A DNA stretch of 64,000 nt, from NCBI GenBank assembly GCA_000004985.1, contig GG738862.1, one strand, 5' to 3'. Position 1 is the stretch's first letter. Each line of letters begins with the position of its first letter. Positions 16,735 to 61,926 of the stretch are shown one piece after another. The position numbers and the translations under genes are program-made. This stretch comes from Naegleria gruberi. Taxonomy: Eukaryota. The notes under the pieces are model-generated. The model was not told the DNA's origin, searched no databases, and saw only the letters and a list, made by a program, of their open reading frames with translations.

Positions 16735-19698
16735 TTAGACATTTTCTTGATTAACTCCTCTTCCATTATTATCTGTGTTATTATCACCAGCAATTGGACC
16801 ATCATTGGATAATGTAGTACTATTATTAGTTGTATCATTACCAATTCCATATTGTCTTCTCAATGCATCCAAATCAAAAGGTAAAGTTAATTGAATTTGT
16901 AAATTTGGTCTCTTTGCATTTTCTCTTCTCAATTTTTCTAATTCTTCTTCATCAATAATCCACATTTCATCATCATCATAACGTTGACCAAAACATAATA
17001 AATTTGATTTGATAAAATCTAAAGCCTTCATAAAATTATTACCATATTTTGAATTATTAAAATTATTTAAAAATCTACGTTTAGATTCAACCTGTTCAAC
17101 ACGTGCAGTACCAGTTGTTGTATCAAATGGAAGTGGAATTTCCTTAGTTGCTCTATAATTTTCTATATTTGCAATATTTTCATGTTCAATACGGAAAATA
17201 TTCCAAATAAATCTTCTTAAAATTTCCAAAAATACAAACAAGTATAAAATCCATTCCAATGTTTCCTTTTCAATTTTAACAAATGATTTAACAAATAAAA
17301 ATGGTAACCAAACCCATCTTAGTATAATATTACTAAACATGGCCATATAATAATATTGAGGTGAAAATATTAATTTAGATCTTAATCCCCAATATTTAGT
17401 TTTCTTTTCAAATAAACCCATATCAACACGTAAATCCCAATATAATTTTAAACATGTTGAAATAATATTTATAATAATATATATAATACGTAATATTGTA
17501 AATGATCCAATTAATATATTATTAGAATTATCCAATGTTAATTTATCAATAAATGCAATAATAATGACTAAACATGATGAAAAATATTTTAATGCATTTA
17601 ATAAATGCATTTTTTGTCTAGTATCATAATATTTTCTTAAACATTGCATTAATCTAACATGATATGGAATGTAATTTAAAATTGGAATTCCTAAACTTTT
17701 AGTTGAAGAACAAAATAAAGAAATTGTTGAAAATTTTGAAGTTGCAGGATAAATACAACCAATAAATTGTAATTCAAATAAAACATCAGATAAAGAAGTT
17801 AATTGATCTGCAATAAAAAAGTCAGAAAATCTAACTACTGTAAAAGGAGATGCTAACATTCTTAAAATACATTTTAATAACCAATATCTAAATTCAAAAT
17901 TTAAAATTTTAAAAGGATTAATTAAATATAAAATAAAAATAATCCATAATATAATTGGATGCCAATATGCATATTGTCCTATTAATAGAATATTACTTAA
18001 ATAGGAAATTACATTCATCATGTAAATTAATTGACTTGTAAAAATTATATTTAAAATTAATAATGAAATTGATAAAAATTTCCAAGTTGATAAACACATT
18101 AATGGATTTAATCCTAATATGTAAATATAATTAATATTATATTTACTCCAAATTCTAATATTTATACTTATAAAAAATGTTAATAATGTTGGAAATAATA
18201 ATAATCTATATAAAGAAAAACTTTGATCATCATATTCTATATTTTCCTTATTTGTAAATTCATATGTATAAAAATAATAAAATAAATTTATAATTATTAA
18301 TATAAATAAACTTCCTAATAAAATACCACTTGTAAATATATCTTTTAAATTATTTACTTCTAAAATACCAATATCTCCTATTTTTAATTTACTTAATTGT
18401 TCACTTGCTAATTTTATATCATTTTCACAATAATATTCTGCATAATAATAAATTGTATCTTTAATATGTTTATCAATTAAATTAGAATTTTTAAAATATT
18501 GATATTTTATAAATTTTATATTTTCAAATATTTCTGTAAAATTAATATTTCCATATATAGTATCATAATAATTATTATATTATTATTATTTAGAATTATT
18601 ATTATTATTAGAATTATTATTAAAATTATTATTAATAATAATAGGAGTATTAATTGAATTATTTTTAGAATTATAATTAATTGCATCATTTAATTCATTA
18701 AAAGTAAATTTAATTTTTCTTTTTGTAATTTCATTTAATTTTGTTGTAATATGAATTAAAGCATTATAATTAACTAATCTATAATTAAATAATAAATTTA
18801 AATTATAATAATGTTCTTCAATTCCTTCTTTTAATTTTTGTTTTTGATTAAATGTTAAAATTTCTAATTTTGATGATTTACTATCTTTAGAAATTAATGA
18901 TCTTGCATATTTATTATCATTATACATTTCATTAATTTTATTAATTTGTTCTAATAATCTATTATGTTCATCATTAATAGAAATTTCATTTTCTAAATAA
19001 AAATTATTAATCTTATTAATTTCCTTATATAGTAAATATTTAAAATCTTCAATTAAATTATTATTTATATCATTATTATTATTATTATTTCTTCTATTTG
19101 TTAAATTAATAGATGAAGATATAATATTTTTAATATTAAAATCAGAATGTTTAAATTCATCTTTTAAATCATTTAATTTATCAAGTAAATATTTATAATC
19201 TAAATATTTAACTTGCCATTCTGTTACCATATTTGCATAAAATTGTTGTTGTAATGTTTTTTCATCATATGAAGATGATATTATTATAGATTCAGATGAT
19301 TCACTACTACTACTACTATCATCTGATTCTACACTTTCAATACTATTTCTATTTTCATTATCTTCATTAGATCTCAATAATATATTATTAGTATTATTAT
19401 TGCTGTTATTATTATTATTAATAGATTTAAAAGAGTGATGATGATGATGACGGTGATGATCACCATATTCTATTGGATCATCAATATATTTATGATGATG
19501 ATCTAATAATTCTAATTCATCTTCTTGATTTAATGGAATATCTTCTTCTATACGTTCATCATCATCATTAATTGTTGAGGAATGTATCATCATCATTGGT
19601 GGAGGAGGTGTTGAAAAACTTCCTACCCCACTACCAATGGGTGATGAAAATGATGACAAGTTTGGTGGAGTCTTGTTAATTATACTTGTTCTTCTCAT
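16735..19698 (-). CDS. SPX-EXS family protein (XPR1/SYG1/PHO1-like phosphate exporter homologue). It has a His-run N-terminal extension. There is at least one intron, with acceptor ttttacag at about 18535.
   Basis: EXS signatures are VVRFSDFFIADQLTS and RRFIWNIFRIEHENIANIENYRATKEIPLPFD. The SPX start-like segment is FYANMVTEWQVKYLDYKYLLDKL (compare PEWRKQYINYEEMK). The frame is open on the minus strand from 16735 to about 18534 without an ATG. The upstream exon 18586..19698 ends in a stop, so the exact splice is unresolved. Confidence 0.55.
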
Positions 19699-19772: not shown

Positions 19773-22133
19773 TTGGATATAGAAATGGATGAATTTATAG
19801 TAAATACAGTTACAGATACTATTGAAAATGTAATAGTATCATTTAAATGTAAAAGTTATTGGTTTATTTCATTTGATGGTGTTGCAACTAAATCTAAAAG
19901 ACTTTTACAAAGAGATAATAGAGCTAAAACTTCACGTAAATCAAATAAACAGTTATTTAATAATAATAATAATAATATAGATGATAATAATAATATAGAT
20001 GATAATATAGATGATAATAATATAGATGATGAACAAGTTGATAAAGAAGATCTCATTGAAGATAAAGAAGATTTCATTGAACAAGATGATAATAATATTA
20101 TTATTATTGAAAAAGAACAAGATGAATTAAATGATGATGAACAAGATGAAAATCCAAAAAAAAGAAAATTAAATGATGATATCAATGAAGAGAATGATAA
20201 TAATATTAATAATAATAATACTACTCCTATAACAAATATATCTAATAATAATACAAATACTAATAATAATAATATAAATAATAATAATAATATAAATATA
20301 GATAATGTAGAATGTAAAAGATCATTAAGTGTAGAAATATCACCTGGTACAAATTTAAGTAAATTAATGTATGAATCAATAACTAAATTAACATACCAAA
20401 TATGTAAAAAATTAAAAATAGATATATATGTATCATCTACTAATAGATCAGGTGAAGGTGAAACTAAAATAATTGAACATTTAAGACAATATTCTAAAAA
20501 TAATACATTACCTAAATCAGTATTAATTATATCACAAGATTCAGATATGATTTTAATACCATTAATTAATTCAGATATTAATTGTTCTTTTTATATTTTA
20601 ATACCAAATTCAATACAACATTTTAAATCTGGTAATTTTATTGATGTTACAAGTTTTAAATTATTTTTATATAATTTTATTTCTAAAAATAAATTTAAAA
20701 AAATAGATAATTCTAATATAAATAGTAATTATTCTATAAATAATTATAAAAATATTCATCAATTATGTTTAGATTTTGTTAGTATTACATTATTAGCAGG
20801 TGGATGTGATTATTTTAGATATTTTCAAAAAGGATTTATAAGAAATTGGAGAAATTATTTTAAATTAATTGAAAATTCATCTAATTTTAATATTTTTGAA
20901 TTAAATATTTTAAATAATTCAGAAATTGAATTTACAATTAATTGTAATAATTTTATATCTGTATTTGGAAGTAGAGTACCATATACACAAATGGAAATGA
21001 AAAGTGATCCAAATAATGCAATTTTATTTTTTAAACAATTATGTGCATGTATTTTACAATTTAAAGGAATAATTCCAATTATGGAATATTTTAATAATCA
21101 TTTAAAAATGATTGATGTTTTACATTTATTTTCTTTAAATAATAATTTTTATGAACAAGTTGAATTTACAAATAATAATAATATTACTAAATTTAGAAAA
21201 GTAATTACAAAAACATTTAAAGATAAAATTAAAATTTTAACAACAATTGAAGAATTAACAGATAAAACAAATTTAACTCCACTTGAAGGTTTAATTTCAA
21301 TGATTAATAATTTAAATTATCATGCATTACCAAATCAAAATTTAATTGAAATTTTTAAACATGAAGAATTATCTTTTATTTTAAATATAAATACAAAAAT
21401 GGAAAAAAAATATTGGACTTTAAATGATCCTTATTTAAAAATTAGAAATTTTATTAATGAATGGAAAATTAAATATTCAAATATTAATGATAATGAAATT
21501 AATAATATTAATACTGGTACTTTATATTTAAAATATAATGATTATAATAATATATTGACTTTTATGGAAGGTAATAGACCATTTATGGAATTTAATAATA
21601 TTGATTTAAATTTAAATTTAAATAATAATTATCATAAATATTTAAATATTTCAAATATAATTACTGCTCCTTCTATTGATCAAATTAATTTATTAAAATT
21701 ATTTGATGAAACTGATCCACATAAAAATTTAACTAAATTAGTTTATAAAAGACAAAGACGTCCTAATAATAATAATAGAAATAGAAATAATAGAAATAAT
21801 AATAATAGAAATAGAAATTATGATAGAAATGATAATTATGATAGAAATAGAAATGATAATAATAGAAGTAGAAATTATGATAGAAATTATGATAGAAATG
21901 ATAATAGAAATACTACTATTGAAGATAAGAATAATGATAAAAGTAGTTATGATAATAGAAGAGATGATAGAGATAATAATTATAGAAATTATGATAGAAA
22001 TTATGATAGAAATAGAAGTTATAATGATAATAGAAATGATAATAGAAATTATAATAATAATAATTATAAAAGAAGAGATAATAGAGGAAATACTTTTTAT
22101 AATGAAAGAAAAGATAATGATAGAAATAAATAA
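19773..22133 (+). CDS. XRN-family 5'-3' exoribonuclease homologue (divergent). It lacks the canonical extreme N-terminus and has an N/D-rich insert and a C-terminal RN(Y)D repeat tail.
   Basis: [27 protein letters not shown] compares with XRN1 [48 protein letters not shown] compares with [37 protein letters not shown]...[14 protein letters not shown] compares with PGEGEHKIMEFIR...LYGLDADLIMLGL. Confidence 0.55.
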   Translation: [786 protein letters not shown]

Positions 22134-22401: not shown

Positions 22402-23774
22402 TCAATTAAATAATTCATAAATAGGTCTAAATGATTTTTGTTGAATAACTTGTGGTATTTCTAATAAACCTCTCAATGCTTTTAAAATATCAATACCTAA
22501 TAAAACACCTAACATTCCAGCTAAATCTCCTAATAATTGTAACATTGTTTTACCTGCAATTTCACTAACTTGATGAATATTTAAAGTAGAATAAGCAAAT
22601 GAAACAACAACAATTGAATCTTCTTTAAAAGTTAATTGTACATTTGAAATACGTGAATCCCAATGTATTGAATGTAATGGATATTCTTCAGTTGATTTTA
22701 ATCTATTAGTTTCAATTTTAGTTAAAGTAAAGAAATTATCAACGTATGGTATTGCAAAATTAGTTTCAGCAAAAACTAGTGGAATTGAACCAATTTCATG
22801 AAATGATGCTTGTAATCCAAATCTTGAATCTCTATCAGATTTTACAGGTGGTAATGTAAAATACATTGAAATACTACCACCATATCCTGTTGTTTTAACT
22901 GCTAATGGTTTACTTGTATCATTATTAAATACATAACATTGAAATACTTGTCCATTTTGTTCAATTACTGTTTCACTTAATTTAAATGGACATTCATATA
23001 TTGTACCATCTGTATCATTCACCATTGTACATGTTTTTAATGTTAAATTACAATAATCACAATAATATTCTGCATTCCAATTACATATTGTTACTATTTA
23101 ATTATATTATTATATTTTAATTATATTATTATATTTTTAAATTATTATGTATTTATATTATTAATTATTTTAATATTTTAATATTAATTATTATATTTTA
23201 ATAATAAAAATAACATACCAGCAGGATAATTTAAAGGTACTTGTTCAATATAAGAAATAGAAGTGGATGGATTTGTTTGTGCATCTAAATAACCATTTAT
23301 AGAAGAATATAAATAAAATAAATAAACACCAATACATATTAACCATCCAATTGATGTTATAATTTCAGATATTCTTACACCTGTTCTTATTTGTAAACAA
23401 TCTGCATGATCATTTTGTGATTCTAAATCATCTCCATCTCCATCTTCATATTTATGTATATTTTTAACTCTAGGTGTTAATACTTTTGAAAGTGTATCTA
23501 ATGTTGTTGAGTGATGTTGTTGATGTTGTATTTCCTTATTAAATGATTGATTATTATTTGTATTTTTCATTAAATTATTATTTTGTTGTTGTTGAGATTC
23601 AGGATAATCAATACAACAATTATTATCCATTTCAACTTGTATCGGAGGTTGTGGTTCAAAATCATCTAATGTTGGAAGCCTACTTGATGCTACATGTGAT
23701 GTTTGAGCCTTATATCCATCTTGATTTGTTGTTGTTGTAGATGTTACTGAGGTATTAAGATTATTATTCTTCAT
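22402..23774 (-). CDS. DEG/ENaC/ASIC-family cation channel homologue with two exons, 23219..23774 and 22402..23093. The 125-nt intron 23094..23218 starts GTATGT and ends AATAG.
   Basis: Exon 1 has a long N-rich N-terminus, TM1 ITSIGWLICIGVYLFYLY, then ...NYPA|. The splice creates YPAVTICNWN (compare the conserved post-TM1 FPAVT(I/L)C). A Cys-rich ectodomain follows. C-terminal TM2 LLGDLAGMLGVLLGIDILKALRGLLE aligns with ASIC [26 protein letters not shown]. Confidence 0.6.
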
Positions 23775-25353
23775 TTATTGTTGATGTTAATGTTGGATGT
23801 AGTAGTTGTTGTATATATATATTAATTGATTATTTCATGAATTGGATGTTGTGTTGTTTTTTTCATTTTATGAAATATACAGGTTTTGGCGCCATGCAAC
23901 TACAAGTTCACGGTTTAGCTAATTTTGGGTTGTTTAACTGCGCACCTGTTTGAGGGAATCAAGGCTAACTGTAGAAATATATCTAGAACTGGTTGATCAT
24001 CCTTTGAATTCATTTTACATCTCCAATAATTCAAAATAATAACCTTCTTTCCAAGCAATTATTTAATACATCATCAATTACAACAAATGAGTCAGTTATG
24101 GAAATATTATCATTTATTGTGGAAGCAAAGTTAAACAAAACTCAATCACAAAGTTTGATTTAAATCAACTTCACAAGTTATTACCTCCTTGTAATCTTCC
24201 AAATCATACTTCAAGAGTTTACTTTTGTGAAGAATCAGTTTCAAAACATTCTCAAACAATTTGTGAAATATTTGATATTAACAAATTCTAGACCCCTAGA
24301 AAGACATGAAAAGGAAGTAATTTCAGATTTATTGTGCCTTGACAATGAATATTAGATTCGTACTAACAGAAGATTCAAGCTAGGACAACTCCAGTATTTG
24401 GACATGAGCCGAATAATTTAACAGATTGAAATAATGAAAGTTGCTTCAAGCTAACACCAAGGTGAAAAGTCCTTTGTTTAAAATTGATATTATTACTTAT
24501 AATAAGTTGATACAACTATATTGTTACCATTATCTGGTGTCATGTTTGGGACGGTATAAGAGGATGTCCAAAACTAAAATACACTTTAAAACTAGAAGGC
24601 TGCAGATTACAATAGGTTTACATGCATTTTGCGCTGAATGTTTGACAGGCGATAAAATAAGTAGATGATATCTAGATACACATTATACTGTTGTATTTCA
24701 ACATACATATACATACATTCAACAACTGTTGATTACCGTACAATCTAGTGATAATTACAAGTATCAACTAGGATAAACACTACCGCGACATAGATACCAT
24801 GTACTTCACAAGAAAATGATTTATCACTGAATATTGGTGCCGTAAGCGAGTGTATGCATATTTAGTGTATGTCCAACTTAGAGTGTATCTTATATAACAT
24901 ACTATATCTAATACAGTTATGGTATTGGAATAGCCATTCTTCTCGGGTTGACAATATTAGCTCAAGGTTTACTCTAGGGTGCACCAAAATTAAGTTTTCA
25001 GGATATGAGATGTTTGCTTTGAACTACTAGTACAAAACAACCCTATCAGTTGTTTTACTCTCTAGTTTGGAATACTTGTATTACAGGAATCTTCGAAGAG
25101 TATTTGGCAATTTTTTGTTATATATACTATTTCTTGTATTCAGAGAACCTGCCACTAACGAATTCTTGTCAATTAATAACCACAATATTTCAATCACTTC
25201 TTTTCACCTACGACCACAAAGGAAGATTGGTTAATAGCATTCTCTAGAAACATTTCTTGTGGTCAGCTTGTGTCGTTCTTTGCCAAAGAAGGTTACATCA
25301 ATTCCTAAATTGCGCTATTAGGATAAATTCCATTCTGAAAAGTTTTAAAAAAC

Positions 25354-27918
25354 ATGTCATTACACGATGATCAATTATCCTCCTCTATTACAACTCCCCA
25401 ACAAGATGATGATATTAATAATAAAGATATTGTTGATGAATTGAATAAATATGATATTAATAATAATAATATATTTGGTTATAATAAACAAATAAATAAA
25501 AAACAAATTATATATGGATGTGGTGATGGATTTTGGAAGAAACAAACCGATATAATATCAATTACTAAATTAACAAATTTTGATAAAATAGATTATTTAC
25601 AAAATTATATATTAAATGATAAAATAATTAAATTTAAATGTAAAGATCAATTATGTATATTTCTTACTAGTAATGGAAATGTATATAAAATGGGACAATG
25701 TACATTTATAAATAATTGTACAAATATTCCAACATTAATTAATAATTTTAAAAATGATAAAATTATTGATTTTTCNNNNNNNNNNNNNNNNNNNNNNNNN
25801 NNNNNNNNNNNNNNNNNNNNNNNNNNNNNNNNNNNNNNNNNNNNNNNNNNNNNNNNNNNNNNNNNNNNNNNNNNNNNNNNNNNNNNNNNNNNNNNNNNNN
25901 NNNNNNNNNNNNNNNNNNNNNNNNNNNNNNNNNNNNNNNNNNNNNNNNNNNNNNNNNNNNNNNNNNNNNNNNNNNNNNNNNNNNNNNNNNNNNNNNNNNN
26001 NNNNNNNNNNNNNNNNNNNNNNNNNNCTTTTATAGAATATAAAAAAAATGGTAAATATCAAGTTGACTATTTTTATACTTTAAATTTTACAAATATTACT
26101 AAAATAGTAAAAGAATGTAATAAAAATAAAAATATATTTATTAATAATAATAAAATACAAGATATTAAAGATATTCAATGTAATGGTATTAATACTATAA
26201 TTATTTATAATGATAATACAAATATATTATCTCCTTTATTTAATGATTATTATAATCCAATTAAAAATGAAATTATTTTAAATAAAGTTTATAATAATTT
26301 TATTTTTGAAAATGTATATCAAAAATTAATTTTAAATGAATATCAAATTTTATATTTAAATAATAATAATGAATGTAAATTTATTGATTATAATGGTAAT
26401 TTATTTAAAATGGATAATATTATAAATATGGAAAGTGGTACATTTCATAGTTTTTTACAAACTATTGATAATAAATTTTATTCATTTGGATCTAATGAAT
26501 TTGGTGAATTAGGATATAATAAGAAATTTAATGAATTAAAACAAGTTGAATTACCATTTACTATTAAGGAAGGTGATAATGTTCAAATTTGTTGTGGTAA
26601 AAATTTTACTATTTTAATACATGAAACAGATAATGATGAAATATTTAAAATTAATAATTTAATTGTAACTGATAATTTTAATTTTAATTATGAAATTAAT
26701 TCAAATTTTTATTTAAATTTAAATTTATTAAAAAATATTTCCAATGATTTTTATAATTTAATTACAAATAATAATATAATTGAATATTTAAATGAAAATG
26801 ATCAAAAAGCATTATATTATTTAATTAAAAATGCATTAATTAATTTAAATAATTTAACTAATTTAGATGAATTATTTATTAATTATGATAAATTTATAAA
26901 ATTAATTTCCTTTAATGAAATTGAATTAAATTTAGTAACATGTCTATTTATATTAAATGATATAAATGATATTAATAATGAAATTAAATTATTATTATTT
27001 AATGATCTATCAAATAGAATTAATATTGATAATATTATGAATATTTTACAAAAAGTTAATAATTATCTTTCTTTAAATATTTTAAAACAATCTAAAAATA
27101 GTATTTTATTATTATTAGCAAATAAATGTTTAGCATTTATTAAAGAAAATGAAAAATTATTAAAATCAGAAAAATTATTTGAAATTATTAAAGATAAATT
27201 ATTAAATATTAAAAAATCATTTAAACAAATTATTTATAAAATTGATAATATTACTACTATAAATGGAATTGATAATAATATTAAAAATATAAATGAATCA
27301 TTAAAATTATTATATAATAATAATGAAAATAATGATATTAAAATTATAATTGATGAAAATTCAAATGAAATATTATATTTACATAAAAGTATATTATCTA
27401 TTCATAGTCCAGTTTTAAATATTTTATTTAAAAATTTAAATATTAATGAAATTAATTTATATGAATTTATTGAAATGATGATATCAGATGAATGGATAAT
27501 TAATTTATTTAAATATTCAAATAAAATTAATGAAATATTAAAAATAATATTTAAATTATGTTATGGATATAAATTAAATAATTTAAATTTAAATAATTTA
27601 ATTGGTATTTTAATTATTTCACAACAATTAGATATTACATGGTTAATTAAATATACATGTAATTTAATTATTGAAAAATTTAATGAAATTAATGATACTG
27701 AATTTATTTTATTACTAAATTTAGTATCAATTTCACAAAATAATAATAATTGTAAAGAATTTGTTGAATATTTTAAAATATTTTGTTCAAATAATTTATC
27801 ATTTGATTATTTACAAAAAATACAATCAGTTTGTAAAGATAATCAATCATGTGATAATTTTATTAAAATTATTATTGATTATTATTTAAGAGTACATACT
27901 ATAAATAGAAAATATTAA
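25354..27918 (+). CDS. RCC1-repeat plus BTB/POZ-domain protein (RCBTB-like), extremely AT-rich. The CDS is interrupted by an assembly gap.
   Basis: YSFGSNEFGELGYNKK and GCGDGFW are RCC1-blade-like. ILYLHKSILSIHSPVLNILFKN is the BTB core. The N run inside the ORF is read as X. Confidence 0.4.
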   Translation: MSLHDDQLSSSITTPQQDDDINNKDIVDELNKYDINNNNIFGYNKQINKKQIIYGCGDGFWKKQTDIISITKLTNFDKIDYLQNYILNDKIIKFKCKDQLCIFLTSNGNVYKMGQCTFINNCTNIPTLINNFKNDKIIDFXXXXXXXXXXXXXXXXXXXXXXXXXXXXXXXXXXXXXXXXXXXXXXXXXXXXXXXXXXXXXXXXXXXXXXXXXXXXXXXXXXXXXFIEYKKNGKYQVDYFYTLNFTNITKIVKECNKNKNIFINNNKIQDIKDIQCNGINTIIIYNDNTNILSPLFNDYYNPIKNEIILNKVYNNFIFENVYQKLILNEYQILYLNNNNECKFIDYNGNLFKMDNIINMESGTFHSFLQTIDNKFYSFGSNEFGELGYNKKFNELKQVELPFTIKEGDNVQICCGKNFTILIHETDNDEIFKINNLIVTDNFNFNYEINSNFYLNLNLLKNISNDFYNLITNNNIIEYLNENDQKALYYLIKNALINLNNLTNLDELFINYDKFIKLISFNEIELNLVTCLFILNDINDINNEIKLLLFNDLSNRINIDNIMNILQKVNNYLSLNILKQSKNSILLLLANKCLAFIKENEKLLKSEKLFEIIKDKLLNIKKSFKQIIYKIDNITTINGIDNNIKNINESLKLLYNNNENNDIKIIIDENSNEILYLHKSILSIHSPVLNILFKNLNINEINLYEFIEMMISDEWIINLFKYSNKINEILKIIFKLCYGYKLNNLNLNNLIGILIISQQLDITWLIKYTCNLIIEKFNEINDTEFILLLNLVSISQNNNNCKEFVEYFKIFCSNNLSFDYLQKIQSVCKDNQSCDNFIKIIIDYYLRVHTINRKY
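25777..26026. other. Assembly gap (run of about 250 N) inside the RCC1/BTB gene
   Basis: Contiguous n characters. The frame continuity across the gap is an artefact of the placeholder length. Confidence 0.95.
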
Positions 27919-28746
27919 ATTTGATTACCAATCAGATTTATTAGAATTATTTAGTTATTTATTTTTTATTAGAAATTTATATATTGTGTAATGAAATAAA
28001 ATTATGTTGTGTATTTAAAATTCATAAATTATTTTATTACATCTCGGCAGCCATGAAGAATTGAAATTGTATTATATTGAAGATTCATCAATAATATGGA
28101 ATGATGATGATCCATAGTAAATCATATGGATGACATTCAGTAGTGAATCTTGTGACTTGTCATTATATTATCCAATAAATTTAGATATAAATAATCCCTG
28201 AAATGAACTAATTACAATATCGCCAATAATAGATCAATCCCTTCCAAAAAGAATACATTCAATAGGTGATTGTTATCCATTGTATTATAAGTAAACACTT
28301 TCAATCAATGTATTCTTCACCTCAATGAACCACATATCACCTCAGAGACTAGTAAGTTATCCAATTGATCTGGTTATTGTAATAATAATAGTTGTATTAA
28401 TGTGTATATATTGACATTTGTGGATGTAGGTAATTGAGGTAATAGTTTCGCCACAACCTTACTCAAGACCTAATAAAACAACAATCAATTGTAATATTTT
28501 CAATGACAAATTCATCATTCCATATCAATTATGAACAATTCTGCATCTTTTTACAATAGGTGGTCTTTATTAAAACCAAAATAGGACCTAACAAGATTTC
28601 CCAATTGGTATCGTCAGTGCTCAAAATGGATTCCAGCACAAATATTCGCTATTTTCTTCAACTACAAAGGGACATTTTTTATGATTCAATTTAAAAAAAA
28701 ATACAACAATAATAACTGCAAAGATTTCATTTAATAATAACAAAAA

Positions 28747-61855: not shown

Positions 61856-61926
61856 GCGTCGATGGTTTAGTGGTAGAATACGGCGTTGCCATCGCCGTGA
61901 CCCGGGTTCAATTCCCGGTCGACGCA
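61856..61926 (+). tRNA. tRNA-Gly (anticodon GCC)
   Basis: GCGTCGA-TG-GTTTAGTGGTAGAAT-ACGGCG-TTGCCAT-CGCCGT-GAC-CCGGG-TTCAATT-CCCGG-TCGACGC-A. The 7-bp acceptor stem, T-loop GTTCAATTC and anticodon loop TTGCCAT closely resemble eukaryotic tRNA-Gly-GCC. Confidence 0.9.

Follow-up and report, generated by a model that had tools for sequence, protein, structure and literature searches.

A compact DEG/ENaC-type channel subunit in Naegleria gruberi with G-I-D in place of the G-A-S belt and a probably non-Na+-selective pore

DEG/ENaC channels are treated as essentially an animal invention, and their Na+ selectivity is explained by the G-A-S belt of the pore, the HG loop, and the carboxylates at positions 18' and 21'. 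A gene on the minus strand of Naegleria gruberi contig GG738862.1, at positions 22402 to 23774 of the 64,000-nucleotide stretch analyzed here (the window), raises the question of whether a protist encodes such a channel and, if so, what kind of pore it forms. Our answer is that this gene, NAEGRDRAFT_66414, probably specifies a compact channel subunit of the DEG/ENaC family (Pfam ASC), 415 residues long, with a pore that is not Na+-selective. Its place in the superfamily and its role as a channel subunit can be assigned with high confidence. A sequence-only reading of the window had proposed a DEG/ENaC/ASIC-type channel at this position, a proposal borne out by the Pfam ASC match, by three independent regions of the sequence, by the predicted fold, and by the conservation of a G-x-D motif in the pore.

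Gene structure and the deposited protein model

In the list of open reading frames (ORFs), the gene appears as two minus-strand frames arranged head to tail (23774..23184 and 23025..22402). Joining the reverse complements of 23219-23774 and 22402-23093 yields a coding sequence of 1248 nucleotides that is in frame and comprises 415 codons and a stop (Table 1). The first exon encodes a disordered Asn/Gln/Thr-rich N terminus (residues 1-125), a segment preceding the first transmembrane segment (TM1), TM1 itself, strand β1, and the first half of the YPAV motif; the second encodes the remainder of the PAVTIC motif, the rest of the ectodomain, the second transmembrane segment (TM2), and a conserved C-terminal tail. 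The GC content is 26-27% in the exons and 3.2% in the 125-nucleotide intron. This intron has a single AG, its last two bases, and no GT beyond those at +1 and +5, which leaves effectively one possible junction; unspliced read-through would meet a stop 11 codons into the intron. The junction codon, a Val codon divided into G and TA, produces VPLNYPAVTICNWN, and the wider spliced context reads VPLNYPAVTICNWNAEYYC.

The identical junction is used in the deposited N. gruberi protein XP_002678414.1. Two homologues that are intronless at the motif lend independent support: N. lovaniensis C9374_012982 encodes LPAVTICNWN contiguously, as does a closer orthologue in another Naegleria assembly (locus L002, 64% identity) for FPAVTICNWN. 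The intact frame, the shared junction, and the contiguous motif in homologues together confirm the GTATGT...AG intron from which the sequence-only reading had derived YPAVTICNWN. Intron positions vary among paralogues. The N. lovaniensis gene C9374_012982 (locus L001, 4001-5294) has three introns, located after RFG, after RW, and after GVMM just before GID, with none at PAVTIC, and the truncated C termini of two homologues (P0003 and P0004) look like the result of a missed intron at the same pre-GID position.

The closest database entry is an N. gruberi "predicted protein" (NAEGRDRAFT_66414, XP_002678414.1, EFC45670.1, UniProt D2VC18) that is 96% identical over its full coverage and carries a precomputed PF00858 assignment. 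The gene and its Pfam assignment are already public, and this is not a new gene. The deposited protein has 398 residues versus 415 in the one-intron model. A 51-nucleotide GT..AG stretch inside TM1 is spliced out of it, which turns CIGVYLFYLYSSINGYLD into Y and removes 17 residues, most of TM1. Four homologues (from N. lovaniensis, Willaertia magna, and two metagenomic Naegleria-like contigs) retain this segment, and the GC content of the stretch, 18%, is far from the 3% of the true intron. It is most likely real coding sequence and its removal a gene-prediction artefact; judged by these comparisons, the one-intron model is better than the public one. The 415-residue sequence was not found in a collection of 15 billion proteins, and the deposited N. 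gruberi model, lacking most of TM1, should be corrected.

Table 1. Features of the channel gene, with positions in the window and pore residues in ASIC prime numbering
Feature	Positions	Strand	Basis or ASIC counterpart
Coding exon 1, Met1 to first base of codon 186	23219..23774	(-)	ORF list; splice reconstruction; 100% tblastn match over residues 1-185
Phase-1 spliceosomal intron, 125 nucleotides, GTATGT...TAG, 3.2% GC	23094..23218	(-)	Junction also in XP_002678414.1
Coding exon 2, rest of codon 186 to Asn415; stop at 22402-22404	22402..23093	(-)	ORF list; splice reconstruction; tblastn
GT..AG stretch of 51 nucleotides inside TM1, spliced out in XP_002678414.1	23285..23335	(-)	18% GC; segment retained by homologues
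TM1, about residues 135-158, ISEIITSIGWLICIGVYLFYLYSS	23301..23372	(-)	Kyte-Doolittle hydropathy; aligns to ASIC5 TM1; in all homologues
Post-TM1 hallmark motif YPAVTICNWN, residues 183-192, intron-split	23074..23228	(-)	Aligns to ASIC5 FPAVTFCNLN
Extracellular domain, about residues 159-367 (span includes the intron)	22549..23300	(-)	Predicted all-β palm and β-ball core
β-ball motif C238-Y-V-F-N-N, counterpart of DEG/ENaC CYTFN	22921..22938	(-)	Aligned to FaNaC CFTFN and ENaC γ CYTFNN
TM2 pore helix, about residues 368-398, TMLQLLGDLAGMLGVLLGIDILKALRGLLEI	22456..22548	(-)	Hydropathy; gapless ASIC2/ASIC1 alignment; TM2-only profile
G385-I386-D387, positional equivalent of the G-A-S belt (10'-12')	22489..22497	(-)	Gapless ASIC alignment
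K390 (15') to R393 (18'), basic	22471..22482	(-)	Gapless ASIC alignment; Thr (15') and Glu (18') in ASIC
D375 (0')			Asp in ASIC
L396 (21')			Asp in ASIC
Conserved cytoplasmic C-terminal tail P-Q-V-I-Q-Q-K-S-F-R-P-I-Y-E-L-F-N-COOH	22405..22455	(-)	Homologue alignments

Family membership and the minimal ectodomain

The search against the Pfam ASC hidden Markov model (HMM), PF00858, which had been suggested as a check on the family assignment, returned a match above the gathering score (32.9 bits versus a cutoff of 23.6, E = 4.8e-8) in three stretches. Six close homologues score 35-61 bits, above the cutoff, and among ten distant compact relatives the ASC match lies above the cutoff in six and below it in four. 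To exclude a match that depends on a single motif, a 35-sequence family alignment was cut into three sub-profiles, each of which was searched against the PDB. The TM1-β1 sub-profile, covering the FPAVTxCN region, matched ASIC5 at 1.7e-6; the ectodomain-only sub-profile matched FaNaC at 7e-5 and ENaC γ at 3e-4 through CYVFNN/CYTFNN and the strands that follow; and the β12-TM2 sub-profile matched BRTNaC1 at 2.7e-7 and ASIC1 at 4.6e-7, with DEG/ENaC chains spanning 2.7e-7 to 6e-6. The full 35-sequence profile reached ASIC2 at 9.6e-16 and ENaC α at 1.7e-12, and a single homologue sequence (P0025) gave marginal E-values only, to both ASIC and PAC. Five columns are invariant across these 35 diverse relatives: the Pro and Cys of FPAVTxC (Pro184 and Cys189, corresponding to P167 and C172 in the numbering of the 398-residue deposited protein), the Cys and first Asn of CYxFN, and the belt Gly.

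The N. gruberi protein thus shares with metazoan DEG/ENaC proteins (ASIC, ENaC, FaNaC, BASIC/ASIC5, BRTNaC1, and PDPNaC1) a two-TM topology, the FPAVTxCN motif after TM1, the CYxFN β-ball motif with its Cys, and a gapless LLGDxxGxxGxxxG scaffold in TM2. This topology would place both termini in the cytoplasm. The CN-x-N of the metazoan proteins is CN-W-N here, and the most conspicuous difference is the size of the ectodomain, which by hydropathy spans ≈209 residues between the TM segments, as opposed to ≈370 or more in metazoan DEG/ENaC. From the PAVTIC Cys to the LLGD Gly the distance is 185 residues versus 303-336 in canonical relatives, so the minimal ectodomain of about 190 residues that the sequence-only reading had described is real. 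It contains six Cys residues, with no Cys-rich thumb, and three N-x-S/T sequons.

The fold was predicted with AlphaFold from the 35-sequence alignment, with the deposited 398-residue protein and its shortened TM1 as the target; the resulting model has a mean predicted local distance difference test score (pLDDT) of 76, with values >90 in the ectodomain and <50 for roughly residues 1-107. An earlier model from a 5-sequence alignment (pLDDT 45) was discarded. The predicted ectodomain consists of 11-12 strands and one 4-residue helix, and the model contains no helical finger, thumb, or knuckle of the kind found in metazoan channels. It superposes on the ENaC γ ectodomain over 180 residues at 2.8 Å, and Foldseek matches it to ASIC1 at 4e-12. 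As modeled, the ectodomain is a bare palm and β-ball core. Because the corresponding domains are absent, gating through the acidic pocket and thumb as in ASIC would be impossible. One metagenomic homologue (P0014) carries a Ser/Thr/Gly-rich, mucin-like insertion of ≈45 residues in the loop between two palm strands, and the compact ectodomain therefore tolerates an insertion at this loop.

The protein ends in a cytoplasmic tail with the consensus IPYxxxxKSxRxI(W/Y)(D/E)xFN, which terminates exactly at the C terminus and is kept in Naegleria, Willaertia, and many metagenomic relatives. The tail forms helices in the predicted model. Conserved in the protist family as IPY...KSxRxIWDxFN and lacking from ASIC and ENaC, it may be a trafficking or partner-binding motif.

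Pore residues and ion selectivity

To map the pore, we combined ASIC prime numbering with a gapless HMMER alignment of residues 340-402 to residues 398-460 of human ASIC2. The 63 aligned residues cover LLGDLAGMLGVLLGIDILKALRGLL, within which LLGDLAGMLGVLLG matches the TM2 consensus LLGDxGGxxGLxxG and aligns to ASIC without gaps. Two statements of the sequence-only reading, that TM2 aligns with ASIC residue for residue and that G-A-S is replaced by G-I-D, both hold in this alignment. At the belt, the Gly is kept and the Ser becomes Asp387. The acidic residues of the lower pore, Glu at 18' and Asp or Glu at 21', are replaced by Arg393 and Leu396, and Lys390 occupies 15'. The pre-TM1 regions of the N. 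gruberi protein and 12 homologues contain no HG re-entrant-loop motif, whose place is taken by a basic-x-(T/I)-G or K-x-P segment. On the strength of this alignment, the pore chemistry is not that of the Na+-selective ASIC and ENaC channels.

These substitutions bear directly on whether the protein could form a conventional amiloride-sensitive, Na+-selective channel of the ENaC/ASIC type. The Pfam ASC match, the retained LLGD..G..G...G scaffold, and the fold match are all as such a channel would have them, but Asp replaces Ser at 12', Arg replaces Glu at 18', and Leu replaces Asp or Glu at 21'. Na+ selectivity in ASIC1a requires a negatively charged E18', with S12' playing a minor part (PMC5449180), and the HG motif, which is missing here, buttresses the GAS belt and contacts Ser445 (PMC7308080). 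The acidic pocket, the thumb, and the protease-sensitive finger are also lacking. We consider a conventional Na+ channel very unlikely.

The substitutions extend well beyond one gene. An HMM search of 1.84 billion cluster representatives recovered 176 relatives at E ≤1e-3, 95 of them at ≤1e-10, and the best 156 of the 176 were aligned to a heterolobosean profile. Sixty-three of these form a compact set in which both ends are present and 172-227 residues separate the post-TM1 Cys from the TM2 Gly. The third belt residue in this set is Asp in 47 sequences, Gly in 7, Asn in 3, Glu in 2, and Ser in 2; Lys stands at +3 in 47 of the 63, Arg at +6 in 27, and the Trp of CN-W-N is present in 42. Four matches with long ectodomains (303-336 residues) have the canonical pattern instead, with Ser or Gly at the belt, Thr or Ser at +3, and Glu at +6. 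By this alignment, G-I-D is part of a conserved G-x-D-x-x-K signature and not a single-gene oddity.

How might such a pore work? By analogy with the structures of ASIC, ENaC, and PAC, three subunits would assemble around a central pore lined by TM2, and a stimulus sensed by the β-core would open it. Our best guess is a cation channel that discriminates little between Na+ and K+. The carboxylates of its three Asp387 residues would form a ring serving as a binding or permeation site for divalent ions (Ca2+), with Lys390 pairing with Asp387 or tuning it. Naegleria is a freshwater amoeba, and its amoeba-to-flagellate transformation responds to the ionic medium; for these reasons it is natural to suppose that this family of at least seven paralogues, as homo- or heterotrimers, could serve in sensing ions, osmolarity, or pH. 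The suggestion of altered selectivity made by the sequence-only reading is reasonable by analogy with α-ENaC, in which replacement of S589 by Asp, Asn, Ala, or Cys lets divalent cations enter the pore (PMC6168236, citing Takeda 2007). The specific assignment of low Na+/K+ selectivity and a divalent site at Asp387 is a tentative analogy that we are slightly more inclined to doubt than to accept.

Several observations weigh against this picture of the pore. The Asp is co-conserved with Lys at +3, and it could be neutralized by a salt bridge and face away from the pore. The 12' side chain of ASIC touches the HG loop and not the permeant ion (PMC7308080), and by the same analogy Asp387 may be structural. 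Given the Lys and Arg in the lower pore, the channel could even prefer anions. The truncated TM1 of the AlphaFold target also limits what the model can say about the protein. Because the Asp is accompanied by Lys at +3 and the 18' Glu is replaced by Arg, which puts both charges in the pore, selectivity is not readable from the Asp alone.

Relation to PAC, protist relatives, and genomic setting

Anion preference is the central element of the principal alternative, in which the protein is an anion channel resembling PAC/TMEM206, a ring of Lys390 (and Arg393) sets anion selectivity, and the Asp is structural. PAC is built as a bare β-core between two TM helices in ≈350 residues, a description that also fits the N. 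gruberi protein, which is of similar size once its disordered N terminus is excluded. PAC chains (7jna, 8h8d, 9hqn, and 7ji3) rank from seventh onward in Foldseek at 4.5e-11, close to the ASIC score, and their TM-scores normalized to the target (0.50-0.61, compared with 0.39-0.45 for ASIC) are higher because PAC is equally compact. In a fold comparison that aligned 156-235 residues to targets of 342-471 residues, PAC scored 14.4 and 13.6, and the next fold scored 6.5. The full 35-sequence profile also reaches PAC (Xenopus 7.2e-11, bovine 3.3e-7, human 1.3e-6, with values ranging to 1.8e-5). A 67-position TM1-β1 profile finds all eight of eight distinct PAC sequences at 5.8e-5 to 2.4e-3, with the first unrelated protein at 0.17, a similarity confined to this one region; its match to human PAC (6e-5) is gapless over 56 residues (KLKHPVMSVSYKEVDRYDAPGI), and PAC KLKHPVMSVSYKEV corresponds to Naegleria AQTNPSTSISYIEQ. 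Both proteins have a Lys in the lower half of TM2, and basic residues occupy 15' and 18' here. Lys319 of PAC is reportedly its selectivity determinant (Ruan et al. 2020).

Beyond TM1-β1, the sequence likeness ends. The ectodomain-only and TM2-only profiles, which match DEG/ENaC, return no PAC match at E up to 10, and no sequence similarity to PAC is detectable in the remaining ectodomain or TM2. No TMEM206 Pfam match was obtained for the N. gruberi protein (E up to 10) or for ten distant relatives (E up to 1), and PAC lacks the FPAVTxCN and CYxFN motifs and the LLGD..G..G..G scaffold. The acidic belt residue, invariant to frequent in the family, further argues against anion conduction. We regard a PAC-like anion channel as unlikely, and a DEG/ENaC member with a non-Na+-selective cation pore as the preferred reading. 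The resemblance of PAC to ENaC/ASIC has been described as "structural convergence" with "no discernible sequence homology" (PMC7904269), and TMEM206 as having no homologues outside vertebrates and a hemichordate (PMC6663466). On the basis of one segment and the fold, the compact protist proteins are a candidate bridge between PAC and ENaC/ASIC, and they offer a concrete test of whether PAC/TMEM206 is a diverged relative of ENaC/ASIC.

At least seven paralogues are present in N. gruberi (66414, 64560, 64420, 64421, 62132, 64710, and 64711), on different scaffolds; two pairs among them have consecutive locus tags (64420/64421 and 64710/64711), and none but the gene itself was found by tblastn inside the window. 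One N. gruberi model (P0002, 492 residues) looks like two copies fused head to tail. Among the relatives, P0020 (1563 residues) is probably also a gene-model fusion, since its channel domain follows a long stretch of unrelated protein. Further heterolobosean members occur in N. fowleri, N. lovaniensis, and Willaertia magna, and other compact members in Gefionella okellyi (a malawimonad), Planoprotostelium fungivorum (Amoebozoa), Thecamonas trahens (an apusomonad), and Platysulcus tardus (a stramenopile). In a rough neighbor-joining tree without support values, a compact G-x-G/G-x-S group of Platysulcus and marine metagenomes lies between the canonical channels and a G-x-D clade that holds all Naegleria genes, leaving the compact stramenopile relative outside the G-x-D clade. 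An "ancestral" status for the compact form, as the sequence-only reading had suggested, is plausible from these comparisons.

This distribution also bears on whether the gene belongs to Naegleria as a functional gene at all, or instead represents a pseudogene, an assembly error, contamination from a metazoan, or a gene recently acquired by horizontal transfer. DEG/ENaC genes are patchily distributed outside animals, and lateral transfer has been discussed (PMC10507113); the deposited model, moreover, has a broken TM1. That break is explained by the spurious 51-nucleotide intron call, and the reading frame is intact. The exons and intron have the AT-rich composition typical of Naegleria, and other Naegleria species have orthologues of ≈60-64% identity in which the hallmark residues are invariant. 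Pattern scans of limited sensitivity turned up no viral or prokaryotic relatives. The orthologues and paralogues in N. fowleri, N. lovaniensis, and W. magna, together with at least seven N. gruberi paralogues on different scaffolds, support vertical inheritance. We find a nonfunctional or foreign origin hardly credible.

Non-metazoan homologues had been noted before. ENaC-like genes in N. gruberi itself were reportedly recorded by Studer et al. in 2011 (Physiol Genomics), and the mention of Naegleria in the sequence-only reading proves apt, the gene being N. gruberi's own. Earlier homologues from Tunicaraptor, Cafeteria roenbergensis, and Symbiodinium (Elkhatib et al. 2023, PMC10507113) fall in the same Pfam family as the N. 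gruberi gene. A literature search with gene identifiers and with ENaC, degenerin, or ASIC combined with Naegleria found nothing relevant in the literature covered. In it we found no account of this particular gene, of the corrected TM1 or the all-β minimal ectodomain, of a G-x-D-x-x-K pore that has Arg at 18' and lacks HG, of the range of lineages, or of the link to PAC.

The window as a whole is AT-rich (12-36% GC). Such a composition would also suit Dictyostelium, but the closest database entry identifies the DNA as N. gruberi. An ORF at 19773-22133 (+) with an XRN 5'-3' exonuclease N-terminal domain and a long N/R/D/Y-rich low-complexity end (NRNYDRN...) runs toward the channel gene, and the stop codons of the two convergent genes are ≈270 nucleotides apart; because this ORF begins with TTG, its true start is probably in an upstream exon. 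Farther along on the same side are two adjacent minus-strand ORFs (16735-18099 and 18586-19698), with an SPX domain in the upstream ORF and an EXS domain in the downstream one, that from their domain content look like one intron-split phosphate-exporter gene of the PHO1/XPR1 type. Upstream of the channel gene, the ≈1.5 kb at 23800-25350 has an exon-like GC content of 25-40%, and the longest ORF listed there is 75 residues. This region contains neither an ORF ≥120 residues nor an Rfam match nor a sequence repeated within the window, and could be a multi-exon or degraded gene. It is followed at 25354-27918 (+) by an 854-residue ORF with RCC1 repeats and a BTB domain, part of which falls where the window is richest in AT (26001-28000; 12% GC, GC skew +0.26). 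A tRNA-Gly (GCC) at 61856-61926 (+) is the sole Rfam or ARAGORN match in the window.

The broadest interpretation of these data is that minimal DEG/ENaC channels, this one included, form a widespread and hitherto undescribed clade in protists, spanning Heterolobosea, malawimonads, Amoebozoa, apusomonads, and many metagenomic eukaryotes, with evolutionary consequences that we put forward as a speculative, somewhat doubtful proposal. If it is true, the clade keeps an ancestral bare β-core into which finger, thumb, and knuckle were inserted to give the metazoan DEG/ENaC channels. Vertebrate PAC/TMEM206 would then have diverged from the same core, making PAC and ENaC/ASIC homologous instead of convergent, and the G-x-D-x-x-K pore with its charge-inverted lower vestibule would confer a novel selectivity, for example a Ca2+-permeable or charge-ambivalent one. 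Orthologues of the gene are present in the pathogen N. fowleri, with FDP41_006660 as one example. A protist clade of several lineages that keeps the scaffold, replaces the selectivity elements, and lacks the peripheral ectodomain modules would provide a minimal system for two questions: which stimuli the core fold can gate on by itself, and which residues of the pore determine its selectivity for charge and for particular ions.

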